This document shows positions 1,400 to 38,784 of a DNA stretch of 64,000 nt, piece after piece. The position numbers were made by a program, and so were the translations under genes. How positions within the stretch are numbered: position 1 is the first letter of the stretch; the number at the start of each line of letters is the position of its first letter. Below the pieces are notes generated by a model that worked only from the letters and a program-made list of their open reading frames with translations, ran no database searches and had not been told where the DNA came from. Origin of the DNA: a phage; the sequence record PQ724394.1; one strand, written 5' to 3'.

Positions 1400-2266
1400 A
1401 TGATTACACTTAAAATAAATGGTCCTAGATATGAATTAGTTGGAAGAACTGTAACCTTTTATACCGGGTTTGTATTACCGCCCGGTTCTACTCTAGACGA
1501 TGTAGAAATTAATTGGTATAAAAACGATGTCCATATTCCACAACTTCCTACCGAGGACCCTTTTGAATTAAATTTGTGGGAAGTAGGATTCCCTGCTGCC
1601 GGAACATTTTATGCGACTATAACAAATAAGAAAAGTGGAGAAATAACTAAGAGTAATGAAATAGAACTTGAAATAGGTACCCTTCCAAGAAGGGTTATTT
1701 TAGATATAAATTCAAGACGATTAATATACGCTAATATAGGAGAAACTGTTGCACTTAGGCCATCATGTAGAGTAGAGCCTTCTTATGCGGAAAGGGTTTG
1801 TAGATGGTACAGAGACGGAGTCGAATTATCTAAAGATGAAGATATCGATATATTAATAGACAACTCTAGTAAATTCGGGGAGTATACATTAAAATCTATA
1901 GGAACTTGTGAAGGAGCATATATCCCTGCTTCTGAAGAACTTTTAGTTGAAATAAAACCTAGGGATGATGTATTGCAGTGCCCTTTCATATATGATAACG
2001 ACCTTAATGCTTATTTACCATATGGCGGTGGAAGAAATGAATCGTATATGTGGATAGGTTGGTGGGTATGGGACGAAATAAGAGAAGCCGTTAGATTGGG
2101 AGAAGATTGGACTTTGGATATAAACAACAGCCCATACAAGTATAAATGTGAGTTACAAAAAGTAGCCGACCTTTTGTCTAAGTATCCTGAAGTAGAGATA
2201 CAAGAGTCGAGAAATGGCTACATCTTAGAAAGGAAGGACTTAGTTTACGTCCCTCCTGAAAAATAA
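1400..2266 (+). CDS. Hoc-like paralogue: Ig-like N-terminal region plus Hoc-type C-terminal domain
   Basis: C-terminus SYMWIGWWVWDEI...YPEVEIQESRNGYILER aligns with the Hoc C-terminus SAYIWCGWWVMDEI...YPEVDVQESRNGRIIHR encoded at 2540-3952; RBS aggaggt before ATG; terminator follows. Confidence 0.6.
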   Translation: MITLKINGPRYELVGRTVTFYTGFVLPPGSTLDDVEINWYKNDVHIPQLPTEDPFELNLWEVGFPAAGTFYATITNKKSGEITKSNEIELEIGTLPRRVILDINSRRLIYANIGETVALRPSCRVEPSYAERVCRWYRDGVELSKDEDIDILIDNSSKFGEYTLKSIGTCEGAYIPASEELLVEIKPRDDVLQCPFIYDNDLNAYLPYGGGRNESYMWIGWWVWDEIREAVRLGEDWTLDINNSPYKYKCELQKVADLLSKYPEVEIQESRNGYILERKDLVYVPPEK

Positions 2267-22895: not shown

Positions 22896-23261
22896 TTAGA
22901 TATCAAATTCATTCAGAACTACATCAAAGATTGCTTCCAGGTGTTCAGGTTTAGCACGGTTGCTCAGGATGTGACGAATCCAGGTTTTAACCAGAAGCTT
23001 ACGATTATCACCGTTCCAGCAAGGATGGGTACCTAAATCACGTTGACGGAAATCATCATCCAAAGCGATTTTAAAAGTAGAACCTTCCATAGTGATTGAA
23101 ACCGTGATACCATTTTCAAAGCGCATATAAACGTAGTTAGGAGTCATGCACTGTTCGATTTCGCACACTGTGCTGTTGTTGTGTTTCCACAGGCAAATAA
23201 CTTCAGAAGAACCAGCAATACCGTTAGAAACATATTTACGTTCGAAGTTGATGTAGTTCAT
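22896..23261 (-). CDS. Hypothetical early protein
   Basis: 121 aa; preceded by early promoter and a 40-nt leader identical to that of the next gene. Confidence 0.45.
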   Translation of the reverse strand: MNYINFERKYVSNGIAGSSEVICLWKHNNSTVCEIEQCMTPNYVYMRFENGITVSITMEGSTFKIALDDDFRQRDLGTHPCWNGDNRKLLVKTWIRHILSNRAKPEHLEAIFDVVLNEFDI

Positions 23262-23302
23262 TTTATTCTCCAGTTTGTTTTCGTATTATTTGGTACAGGT
23301 CT

Positions 23303-23331
23303 ATAATAACACAACCTGTACCAAAGTAAAC
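23303..23331 (-). promoter_or_regulatory. T4-type early promoter embedded in a palindrome
   Basis: Minus strand GTTTAC-N17-TATTAT; inverted repeat ggtacagg/cctgtacc (23294-23321) flanks the -10. Confidence 0.55.
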
Positions 23332-23335
23332 CGTT

Positions 23336-23704
23336 TTATGCAACTTTAATCCAATTATCTAAATTTAATTCACCTTTGGCTTTCATTTTTTCGATCAGGT
23401 CATCTGCAGTTATACGACCATTTTGATACCATGTAACATCTTCAGAATAACCAGTTTCTTCATCTTCATAGGTCTTACAACGAATCTTACCGGTTATGAT
23501 AGTTTTCAGTTCGTAGGTATCACCGGTAAAAAAGTTTGTTACCAAAATTTTCCAAGAGAAGTCATCAGAAGGACCTTCAGGAGTCATACAACCTACAAAT
23601 TCAAATTGTTCTTTGTACAAGCGCCATTGCATCTCTTTAGTTTCAATAGCTTTATAACCGTCGTGGTCTTTACATTTGATATATGAGTTAAGATTGATTT
23701 TCAT
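23336..23704 (-). CDS. Hypothetical early protein
   Basis: 122 aa; own early promoter. Confidence 0.45.
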   Translation of the reverse strand: MKINLNSYIKCKDHDGYKAIETKEMQWRLYKEQFEFVGCMTPEGPSDDFSWKILVTNFFTGDTYELKTIITGKIRCKTYEDEETGYSEDVTWYQNGRITADDLIEKMKAKGELNLDNWIKVA

Positions 23705-23745
23705 TTTATTCTCCAGTTTGTTTTCGTATTATTTGGTACATGTCT

Positions 23746-23774
23746 ATAGTATCATGCCTACCGGAGATGTATAC
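23746..23774 (-). promoter_or_regulatory. T4-type early promoter
   Basis: Minus strand GTATAC-N17-TACTAT upstream of the gene starting at 23704. Confidence 0.5.
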
Positions 23775-23789
23775 CCTTTTTTTAAGATT

Positions 23790-23820
23790 TAGAAACAAAA
23801 ATGGGACTCCGAAGAGTCCC
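23790..23820 (-). terminator. Rho-independent terminator (cUUCGg hairpin plus U-run)
   Basis: Minus strand gggacuc-UUCG-gaguccc followed by AUUUUUGUUU. Confidence 0.7.
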
Positions 23821-23825
23821 ATAAC

Positions 23826-23987
23826 TTATGCAATAACTTTACCGAAGCAAGCAGCATCTGCACGCAATACTGCACGAGCACGAGCTTGAAGCTTATCAAC
23901 TACCTGATTGATACGCTTGTTAGACGCACGCTTGTAACCAGCGCGTTTAGAGGTTCCGTCAACTACTTTAACTTCTTTCTTAGCCAT
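23826..23987 (-). CDS. Small basic protein (53 aa), hypothetical
   Basis: Own translation MAKKEVKVVDGTSKRAGYKRASNKRINQVVDKLQARARAVLR...; terminator immediately downstream. Confidence 0.4.
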   Translation of the reverse strand: MAKKEVKVVDGTSKRAGYKRASNKRINQVVDKLQARARAVLRADAACFGKVIA

Positions 23988-24340
23988 TTTTAAATCTCTT
24001 AAATTAGGATGCAGGACTTATTGGCATTGCCTGCGCAAGCCCTCAAGGGGAACATAGGTTTTAGATATTTAACGACAGGATAACCGTAAACCTCGTCATC
24101 ATAGCTCTTATCTGTTGCACACCGTTAGCTTAAAGGTTCCGGGTTCGATTTCTCGAGGATAAGATATATACTGATGGATATATAGGCCTTGAGGCGTACT
24201 CCCGATTGGCCATCACCTCGGGGTAGCATGCACTTGCCGCTATAAAATAACATTCAAGAGGTACACCGTAAAACTGCCGGGGTCTTAAAACTATAATGAT
24301 TCGCAAATCATTAATCAGACAGTTCGACGGCTCCTCGATT

Positions 24341-24589
24341 TTACTTCAGGGTAATAATAAAATGACGTACTGCTTTACGAGCTGCTGAAGCCAAAGGCTT
24401 AGCATATTTCAGTTCATCTTTTGCTTCCAATTCAGCGGCCAGAGTAGCCTGAGCAGGATTAAGATGTTTGAAATAACGCAGGATTTCCAGTGCTTCGGCT
24501 TCAACATCAATAGATGCGCCGTAGTTTTCGTGACCGTTGTTCCAAGCGTTGCGTTGCAGTTCAAGAGCGTGATTCAGATGTTTGTTCAT
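24341..24589 (-). CDS. rIII: Lysis inhibition accessory protein rIII
   Basis: 82 aa from ATG 24589 (MNKHLNHALELQRNAWNNGHENYG…), same size and position as T4 rIII; the ORF-track start is an upstream GTG. Confidence 0.75.
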   Translation of the reverse strand: MNKHLNHALELQRNAWNNGHENYGASIDVEAEALEILRYFKHLNPAQATLAAELEAKDELKYAKPLASAARKAVRHFIITLK

Positions 24590-24735
24590 TTTAAATTCTC
24601 GATTCGAGATAAAGATTGGTGGACACGTTCTTCTGAATTTCACTTCCTTTCGGCAAGTCTCTCAGTTGTAGTCCACCGCTTAGGATTCTCCGGTTAACTA
24701 ACTAGTCCGGCAGCCAATCCATATTATTATTTATA

Positions 24736-25059
24736 TCACTTATAAAGACACGGAATAGCTTTATAGTGGCAGGTAACGAATTTCTGTTTAATTTCTTTAG
24801 GCTGTTTAATACCAAGCGCAACTAAAGGATGAGGCACGTTAGCAATCTTACCAACAGGAAGTGGAGTCAAATCACCTACTTCACAAAAACCTTCAGGGAC
24901 ATCAGGCCCTACAGAATAAATTTCGCAAAGTTCAGGGATTTCACCTTGATGAAGTTTGCCAATAACGATACCAGATGCAGTAGTTTCTTCATCACCAGCT
25001 TGTTTTGGTTCGGAAACGAGAATAACATATTCTCCGACCGCTTTAATAGGAAGTTCCAT
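24736..25059 (-). CDS. 31: Head assembly co-chaperonin gp31 (GroES analogue)
   Basis: [25 protein letters not shown]…[15 protein letters not shown] closely matches T4 gp31. Confidence 0.85.
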
Positions 25060-38556: not shown

Positions 38557-38784
38557 TTATTTTTGAATTAAGCCCATATAAAATTCAGCGTCTTCAGCAT
38601 GCATACCATCGCAATATTCATCAGCCATAAAGCGGGTAAGGTCTTCAAGAGGACCTTGAACTTCAATTTGCATACTAAAGAATTGCGTATCTTTAATATA
38701 GGTCATAACTAAAGAAGGATAACGATTACGGATAACTTCGTAAGTGTATTCAAAATCAACGATATCAATATTAACTTTAGCCAT
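38557..38784 (-). CDS. Hypothetical early protein
   Basis: 75 aa ORF with its own early promoter. Confidence 0.4.

Follow-up and report, generated by a model that had tools for sequence, protein, structure and literature searches.

What, if anything, is encoded in the long gap that separates the lysis-inhibition gene rIII from gene 30.9 in T4-type phages? We approached this question through a 64,000-nucleotide (nt) stretch of phage DNA (sequence record PQ724394.1; hereafter the window), the source of which is a JS98-like Dhakavirus of the T4 type (Tevenvirinae): across bases 23700-24750 the window shares 99.3-99.4% identity with phages MN04 and Esco_phi_B-01, and 96.6% with JS98. The region 24001-24340, for which an initial annotation had proposed a small structured RNA or a processed leader rather than a plain spacer, falls within the 353-nt rIII/30.9 intergenic spacer (23988-24340), where the local genes all lie on the minus strand. 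A gap of comparable length (244-398 nt) occupies the same position in most relatives, including T4, whose reference record bears no annotation there. In the window, the G+C content of the spacer is 44%, against 39% overall. Our analysis indicates that the spacer very probably specifies functional structured RNA on the minus strand, and the earlier proposal is supported by covariation in two modules, named B and C. It had to be corrected in three respects: the RNA lies on the minus (gene-sense) strand, it is not like a transfer RNA (tRNA), and it comprises several independent modules instead of a single RNA.

The spacer is more conserved than the genes around it. Module C, which the rIII stop codon abuts, is 98-100% identical to its counterparts in T4 and RB69, and the block formed by modules A1, A2 and A3 is 93-94% identical to them, compared with 84-90% for rIII, 77% for 30.9 and 80-81% for gp31. 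The greater conservation of a non-coding spacer relative to its coding neighbours argues for a function at the nucleotide level, and the modules are held by purifying selection.

The search for compensatory changes in alignments of related phages was strongly positive. Copies of module B were gathered from IMG/VR, metagenomes and GenBank phages, and a first fold, obtained with RNAalifold from a MAFFT alignment of 20 distinct copies, was multi-branched, with compensatory changes at 21 of its 42 pairs. An all-against-all column scan revealed that columns 21 and 57 covary (as C-G, U-A and A-U), and for this reason the small helices P2 and P4 of the RNAalifold prediction were replaced by helix P2', which extends P3. 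In the refined fold (28 distinct sequences) double changes were found at 26 of the 41 pairs (111 cells) and 98.1% of cells were paired, against 25-44% in slid controls; none of 500 shuffles reached the observed values. A covariance model of the module, R1, has exactly one match in the window (177.7 bits).

The architecture of module B can be followed from its 5' end. The closing helix P1, which covaries strongly, is succeeded by the invariant single strand GGCAAGKGCAU, the long hairpin P2'-P3, the junction strand CNNAWGGCC and hairpin P5. Helix P6 then leads to a three-way junction from which P7 and P8 emerge; the loop of P7 is GAAA or UAAA, and that of P8, 15 nt long (GGAMCCUUWAAGCUAA), is nearly invariant. 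The module ends with the strand GUGCAACAGA. No tertiary pairs or pseudoknots could be called among the invariant strands of B, the column scan being too confounded by phylogeny.

Module C was analysed in the same manner: RNAalifold and pair counts were applied to 17 distinct copies drawn from four or more phage lineages. It folds into a long hairpin composed of P1 (GAGG/CCUC), P2 (GCCGU/ACGGU) and P3 (AACUGUC/GGCAGUU), with a junction at the tip that carries hairpin P4, UAAUGAUU-UGCG-AAUCAUUA, the very hairpin that the initial annotation had quoted. Its 5' end, GGAG, is invariant, and the strands CUGAUUA, UAUAGUUUUA and CCCCG are conserved and unpaired. Compensatory changes were detected in 12 of the 25 pairs, 98.8% of cells were paired (29-60% in slid controls), and on four of five measures none of 500 shuffles attained the observed values. 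The corresponding covariance model, R2, has a single match in the window, at 117.8 bits. We have thus demonstrated that C and B are each a self-contained fold kept by compensatory mutation.

The A block is composed of smaller elements. In the predicted pseudoknot A1, stem S1 closes a loop with the conserved sequence GGUUAUCC, and GGUU in this loop pairs with a downstream AACC in the tail CGUUAAAUAUCUAAAACCU. The partners vary by lineage while their pairing is kept (GGUU/AACC, GUUGGUU/AACCAAC, CAAGGUU/AAUCUUG, GUGAG/CUCAC and GUAG/CUAC), and two-sided changes affect S1 pairs 11-32 and 12-31 as well as pseudoknot pairs 21-51, 22-50 and 23-49. With a covariation score of 0.44 (0.18 in shuffles) and 82.9% of cells paired (35-57% when slid), covariation lends moderate support to this pseudoknot in a small sample of 10 sequences. 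The putative hairpin A2 recurs in the form GUACCC-loop-GGGGCUUG, adjoining B or A1, in the spacers of Klebsiella, Enterobacter, EcS1 and Slopekvirus phages, where it occupies different places in the module order. In hairpin A3 the stem becomes CUGG/CCAG at locus L020, a compensatory change, with an almost unchanged loop (GAUGCCAAUAAGA), and in Klebsiella phages a longer hairpin replaces it. The positions of all of these elements, together with those of the surrounding genes, are collected in Table 1.

Table 1. Modules of the rIII/30.9 spacer, motifs within it and features of its surroundings (window coordinates)
Feature	Position	Strand	Basis or remark
Module C, ~95 nt	24248-24342	minus	covariance model R2, RNAalifold, pair counts
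Module B, 135-nt core plus closing helix P1 from flanking bases	24098-24246	minus	covariance model R1, alignments
A1, H-type pseudoknot	24056-24102	minus	10 diverse T4-type sequences
A2, small hairpin GUUCCCC-UUGA-GGG, then CUUG (the motif cctcaagggg below)	24036-24053	minus	recurrence
A3, hairpin GCAGG-CAAUGCCAAUAAGU-CCUGC	24011-24034	minus	immediately 5' of the 30.9 ribosome-binding site
cctcaagggg	24041-24050	plus	
ggccttgagg	24185-24194	plus	
cctcgggg	24216-24223	plus	
aatgattcgcaaatcatt hairpin	24295-24312	plus	
GGTTCGATT	24142-24150	plus	
gp31	24736-25059	minus	annotation of relatives
rIII coding sequence, lysis-inhibition accessory protein	24341-24589	minus	open reading frame list; annotation of MN04 (99.3% identical) and JS98
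Shine-Dalgarno-like AAGAG and ATG of gene 30.9	23985-24000	minus	sequence and annotation of relatives
Gene 30.9, downstream gene of the transcription unit	23826-23987	minus	open reading frame; alignment with T4, RB69 and Mineola gp30.9
Intrinsic terminator closing the rIII-spacer-30.9 unit	23791-23822	minus	terminator scan: 9-bp stem, UUCG loop, U-run
Gene 30.8	23336-23704	minus	open reading frame list; annotation of relatives

The strand of the RNA was assigned from the asymmetry of G·U pairs. For module B, pairing falls from 98.1% when the sense strand is read to 92.4% for the antisense strand, and the difference is larger for module C (98.8% and 85.9%); from these invariant or frequent G·U pairs the RNA was placed on the minus strand, that of the genes. 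In all of the contexts examined, the strand that folds is also the one on which the adjacent genes or tRNAs lie. The strong local pairing potential noted initially could not be upheld as a thermodynamic claim: minimum free energy z-scores of the spacer in the window were -1.0 for the sense strand and 0.0 for the plus strand, and a modest -2.6 was obtained for T4. As the folding energy of this spacer was not significant, thermodynamic stability was not used as evidence.

The motifs on which that first description relied were all found on the plus strand, and they read differently in the light of the folds. Its three G/C-rich segments are not mutual partners: CCCCGAGG pairs locally within module B, CCUCAAGGCC is a conserved junction strand of that module, and CCCCUUGAGGG forms the small hairpin A2. 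The T-loop-like motif GGTTCGATT, which fits the T-loop consensus, is indeed present and might have marked a tRNA-like element or a degenerate tRNA gene. It lies, however, on the strand opposite the covariation-supported RNA, and its sense-strand counterpart, AAUCGAACC, spans the 3' half of helix P7 and the beginning of P8, so that the motif is split between two helices of module B. ARAGORN identified no tRNA or transfer-messenger RNA genes in the window, and no Rfam tRNA family matched even at E-values up to 10, which makes a tRNA-like character of the region exceedingly improbable.

Equally remote is the idea that the spacer harbours small protein-coding genes. The window does contain open reading frames (ORFs) of 58 (TTG start) and 42 amino acids in this region, and the records of Mineola and G4500 annotate coding sequences of 49 to 60 amino acids over module B. 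These two ORFs are the only ones present and have no PHROG match, no reading frame is free of stop codons across the B homologues, and substitutions compensate pairs instead of following codons. The spacer had been described as ORF-free at the outset, and this description holds in the sense that no ORF is conserved.

A covariance-model search had been suggested as a further check, and it placed the spacer in no catalogued family. The whole window gave no match to Rfam 15 at gathering thresholds, and the region 23600-24900, searched at E-values up to 10, produced only a chance match to SNORD97 (19 bits against a threshold of 45), situated mostly inside the rIII coding sequence; the spacer matched no Rfam ribozyme family. 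A host-derived or host-mimicking RNA was rejected after searches of bacterial genomes and plasmids: BLAST of module B against 5,426 complete Escherichia coli genomes found no match, the plasmids yielded only two chance matches of 30 nt, and pattern scans of 185,579 species genomes detected no copy of B and found C only in a Kuravirus-like phage contig binned into a metagenome-assembled genome. The modules were also undescribed in the literature searched on rIII/30.9, T4 small RNAs, rnaC/rnaD and RNAs of phage tRNA clusters, a search that did not extend to the 2003 paper of Driukas and Nivinskas in Biologija on the expression of rIII and 30.9 (cited in PMC9409239). The papers searched likewise yielded no expression data on this locus, and according to a 2010 review of T4, neither a riboswitch nor an RNA acting in trans had been characterised in this phage. 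The modules are therefore probably previously unrecognised phage small RNAs, absent from catalogued families and present also in unrelated phages.

The distribution of the modules is mosaic. A sensitive BLAST search with the spacer matched 997 phage records in a modular pattern, module C alone matching 661. Klebsiella Jiaodaviruses match B only (~95% identity), some Tequatroviruses carry C, B and A, and T4 and RB69 have C and A without B, a module that may be present or absent even among very close relatives. The order of the modules varies as well. It is C-B-A in the window and in JS98, D-C-A1-A2-A3 in T4 (D being a small pseudoknot-like element absent from the window), and C-B'-A in RB69 and Bp7, where B' is a hairpin of ~45 nt. 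Klebsiella phages have X-A1-D-B-A2-A3', in which X is an unrelated hairpin by the rIII stop codon and A3' is the longer hairpin that replaces A3; EcS1 and EcL8g have A2-B-A1, and locus L014 is without C. In L028 gene 30.9 directly follows rIII, and the spacer is likewise missing from more distant T4-type loci (L026, L027 and L029-L031).

Copies also occur outside the T4-type phages. In a Grimontviridae phage, module B lies 13 nt past an ORF and is followed by D and an intrinsic terminator, and Slopekviruses possess a diverged copy of B in a different intergenic region. In Kuraviruses, module C is flanked by an ORF and a terminator and closely precedes the large terminase gene (terL); Pseudomonas phage PsgM04F carries D-C-B' between tRNA-Gln and tRNA-Pro; and in the Vequintavirinae phages W70 and A73 C is followed downstream by a tRNA-like sequence, tRNA-Met and an evident homologue of T4 rnaD. 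Two phages of ~150 kb with 15 tRNA genes contain a near-identical T4-type D-C-A1-A2-A3 block between tRNA-Gly and tRNA-Gln (L082:8283-8713 and L087:1941-2371). Taken together, these data demonstrate that the modules are optional, are re-ordered among T4-type genera, and are exchanged with unrelated phages as transferable cassettes.

The block in the two ~150-kb phages deserves closer description. It includes the ribosome-binding site and ATG of 30.9, joined in frame to the 27 final codons of rIII so as to form the mini-ORF MEKDELKYAKPLASAARKAVRHFVVTLK. Relative to T4, the order within the insert is circularly permuted, and a 13-bp direct repeat (TTTATTGGAGATT) lies on either side; the last 8 bases of this repeat coincide with the 5' end of tRNA-Gln. 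This arrangement suggests that a small circular or tandem intermediate was captured by microhomology.

Several further observations were made on elements that accompany the modules. Module D (e.g. GGUGAUUCGCUACCUUAAGUGCGGCU) has the look of a small H-type pseudoknot and, in several phage families, accompanies C or B; copies occur in the T4 locus L004 (~1405-1435, minus strand) and in L012, L042 and L077. The T4 copy (UUCACUGCC-9 nt-GCUAA) may be similar to the type I-F repeat of clustered regularly interspaced short palindromic repeats (CRISPR) in sequence and spacing, not in the hairpin. In the W70 locus (L073:704-1000), the tRNA-like sequence (~704-795), which has an acceptor stem and a T-arm and was not called by ARAGORN, precedes tRNA-Met (803-877) and the rnaD homologue (species 2 RNA), which keeps its conserved 5' and 3' ends; rnaD-type RNAs are thus not confined to T4-type phages. 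Finally, the gp31/rIII spacer of the window contains a 60-nt hairpin, module E (24618-24677, minus strand; GGUGGAC-UACAAC...GAAGAACGUG-GUCCACC), which is homologous to the hairpin just upstream of 30.9 in Klebsiella and Enterobacter T4-type phages, so that modules have been shuffled even between two adjacent spacers. Its closing stem shows compensatory changes among the copies from the window, T4, RB69 and Klebsiella phages; one wrongly chosen sequence in the E alignment (L043:560-640) is to be disregarded.

Such mobility raises the question of whether the spacer functions as DNA, for example as a hotspot of recombination or homing, a cassette of the promoter-early stem-loop (PeSL) kind, a replication origin or a protein-binding site. 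The mosaic structure of a spacer recombined between phages, including the permuted capture with its 13-bp repeat, would suit this explanation, as would the PeSL-type early-promoter repeats next door (23257-23311 and 23700-23754). It does not account for compensatory double changes that keep helices, or for a G·U asymmetry that marks one strand, always the transcribed one; moreover, the spacer has no promoter-like site, and a repeat search found neither direct repeats nor iterons inside it. We therefore regard a DNA-level element as very unlikely. Among its specific forms, a PeSL cassette was rejected because the spacer lacks a promoter, and a replication origin because the T4 origins listed in a Virology Journal review (oriC near rI.-1, and others at soc, repEA, uvsY and gene 34; PMC3016281), which never mentions rIII, are all at other loci. 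The DNA-level, coding and tRNA-like explanations are thus largely excluded by the tests performed.

If the spacer acts as RNA, how might it work? It would be transcribed along with rIII from the rIII promoters, in a unit ending at the terminator after 30.9. In T4, rIII is expressed from early, middle and late promoters (PMC9409239), and a scan of the minus strand of 23988-24340 revealed no sigma-70-like or other promoter-like site, the only terminator being the one after 30.9. Modules C and B might then be released from the transcript, or persist, as compact stable RNAs, as rnaC and rnaD of T4 do, and could act in trans, their invariant nucleotides in junctions and loops serving to bind some conserved factor of host or phage, for which components of RNA processing, translation or anti-phage defence would be candidates. 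This trans-acting stable-RNA mechanism is the most economical model, and we give it an even chance. For the elements A1-A3, the constant neighbours of the 30.9 start, a role in cis on that gene is more probable, either in controlling translation as an operator or in stabilising messenger RNA (mRNA).

The main alternative, which we consider less likely, is that all of the modules are cis-acting mRNA elements only, serving as a leader that controls 30.9 translation in the manner of a riboswitch or protein operator and/or as a 3' untranslated region (3'-UTR) stabiliser or processing signal of the rIII message. The spacer belongs to a single transcription unit that has no internal promoter and is terminated only past 30.9; A3 adjoins the ribosome-binding site, and no other modules are kept as constantly between rIII and 30.9 as A1-A3. 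The modules take up 3'-UTR-like positions just before terminators in the Kuravirus, Grimontviridae and Slopekvirus contexts, and the Grimontviridae copy of B has a 3' strand (GAGGCUG) with partial complementarity to the left arm of the next terminator, a riboswitch-like layout. An exclusively cis role is difficult to reconcile, however, with the location of C between tRNA genes without an adjoining ORF, with the occurrence of B and C without 30.9 in unrelated phages, or with the variable presence of B among very close relatives. In addition, neither the order of the modules nor their distance from the 30.9 start is constant, in contrast to the expression platform of a riboswitch, and 30.9 can directly follow rIII with no spacer at all. 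Because C and B keep their folds and invariant junctions without a neighbouring ORF, without 30.9 or before terminators, a role in cis dedicated to 30.9 is unlikely for these two modules.

It should be borne in mind that several points weigh against stable RNAs acting in trans. A discrete stable RNA is proposed by analogy and from genomic context; in the window C and B have no dedicated promoter or terminator, so that co-transcription as untranslated mRNA is equally compatible with the data, and no target or partner of the modules was found. The block in the two ~150-kb phages is a recent capture of a T4-type fragment with part of rIII, and it shows mobility and not an old functional tie to tRNAs, while module B was in none of the tRNA clusters examined. 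Furthermore, the folding energy of the spacer is unexceptional compared with shuffled sequence, and since the alignments include many closely related phages, the cell counts overstate the number of independent events; the compensatory changes are nonetheless distributed over at least five lineages.

The hypothesis of stable trans-acting RNAs may be carried one step further. Modules B and C would then be founding members of new RNA classes, making up a set of mobile "RNA cassettes" that unrelated virulent phages of enterobacteria exchange with one another (T-even, rV5-like, phiEco32-like, Grimontviridae and ~150-kb tRNA-rich phages). Each would be a self-contained fold, aptamer-like or catalytic, able to neutralise or hijack some conserved component of the host, such as a defence nuclease that targets RNA or an element of the machinery of translation or RNA decay. 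In this extended form we consider the idea improbable.

The genes around the spacer provide further leads. The rIII protein shares 89-91% amino-acid identity with its T4 and RB69 counterparts. The product of 30.9 is a very basic protein of 53 amino acids with the conserved motif KRAGYKR.SNKRINQ; it belongs to phrog_1427 (PHROG 1427, "unknown function") and has no Pfam match. Given its position directly after the block of structured RNA, gp30.9 is a candidate RNA-binding protein. In several GenBank records this protein is labelled "1,4-alpha-glucan branching enzyme, GH-13-type", probably a propagating annotation artefact, and the spacer modules themselves are carried as "hypothetical protein" coding sequences in many phage records (e.g. 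Mineola and G4500), which are probably artefacts too. The PeSL-type repeats mentioned above, upstream of genes 30.7 and 30.8, are copies of a motif of ~55-67 nt that has further copies near 38781, 39855, 56495, 56838 and 60202 in the window. On the minus strand this motif holds a T4 early-promoter-like GTTTAC/GTATAC ... TATAGT, and it looks like a mobile promoter cassette.

T4 and its relatives are the best-studied virulent phages, and C and A1 are present in T4 itself. The rIII/30.9 spacer adds at least two RNA folds strongly backed by covariation, and a moderately backed pseudoknot, all exchanged between phage families; the folds are new, while phage structured non-coding RNA is a kind already known. 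Should the modules be stable trans-acting RNAs, the small set of known phage non-coding RNAs would be enlarged, T4 would offer clean targets for deletion and compensatory mutation, and a case of RNA-based host takeover or counter-defence might be revealed. If they form a pool of traded cassettes, T4 would carry unrecognised functional RNAs (D, C and A1) in a locus sequenced more than 30 years ago, and the puzzle of phage "stable RNAs" would gain genetically tractable members. Covariance models for B and C would also correct the annotation of ~400-660 phage genomes per module.

Among known systems, the closest counterparts are the species 1 and 2 RNAs of T4 (rnaC and rnaD), which are likewise structured non-coding RNAs of ~100-140 nt, from virulent coliphages, without known function. 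Module C sits in clusters of tRNAs and stable RNAs of other phages, in W70 ~180 nt upstream of the rnaD homologue and within one intergenic region with it, and a placement co-oriented with tRNAs was seen for C in PsgM04F, W70 and the two ~150-kb phages, though not for B and not in the window, which has no tRNA. There is, however, no homology of sequence or structure, as models R1 and R2 miss the T4 tRNA/rnaC/rnaD locus (L079). The T-even copies of the modules are situated in an mRNA spacer and not in the tRNA cluster, and the modules are without the tRNA-like 3' domain of rnaC. A T4-like phage adapting to a semi-permissive host repeatedly gained an rnaD mutation (PMC12685909), which hints, by analogy, that such RNAs may matter for host-specific growth.

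With riboswitch aptamers, module B shares a closing P1 helix, multi-way junctions, invariant junction nucleotides, covarying helices and a site upstream of a gene. It differs from them in having no Rfam family, in being restricted to phages, and in its variable downstream gene, distance and order: it is followed by 30.9 via A1-A3, by D and a terminator in the Grimontviridae phage, and by no downstream gene in Slopekvirus. As predicted from its alignment, module B is built like the core of an aptamer or ribozyme, without a riboswitch's constant gene context. The leader of T4 gene 32 mRNA contains a pseudoknot that is a translational operator in a T-even leader, and A1 is similar in kind: it too is an H-type pseudoknot, located between T-even cistrons and with an A/U-rich single strand after it. 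The sequence of A1 is unrelated to it, though, has no Rfam match, and is located ~55 nt upstream of the start with two hairpins between.

In their mode of spread, the spacer modules recall the PeSL cassettes of T4-type phages, which consist of an early promoter and a terminator stem-loop (Arbiol et al. 2010; Comeau et al. 2014; PMC2839356, PMC4122927). Both are short, non-coding and shuffled among T4-type genomes, where they mark boundaries of gene exchange; the spacer modules, in contrast, have no promoter and possess complex covarying folds, whereas PeSLs act at the level of DNA and transcription, and the rIII/30.9 locus is not mentioned in the 2014 paper. Phage RNA decoys such as RNA anti-CRISPRs (solitary repeat mimics) and pseudo-ToxI are also small, horizontally mobile and patchily distributed phage RNAs, and here the likeness is one of distribution. 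By this analogy, the patchy distribution of the modules across phage families is the pattern that would be expected of accessory counter-defence functions.

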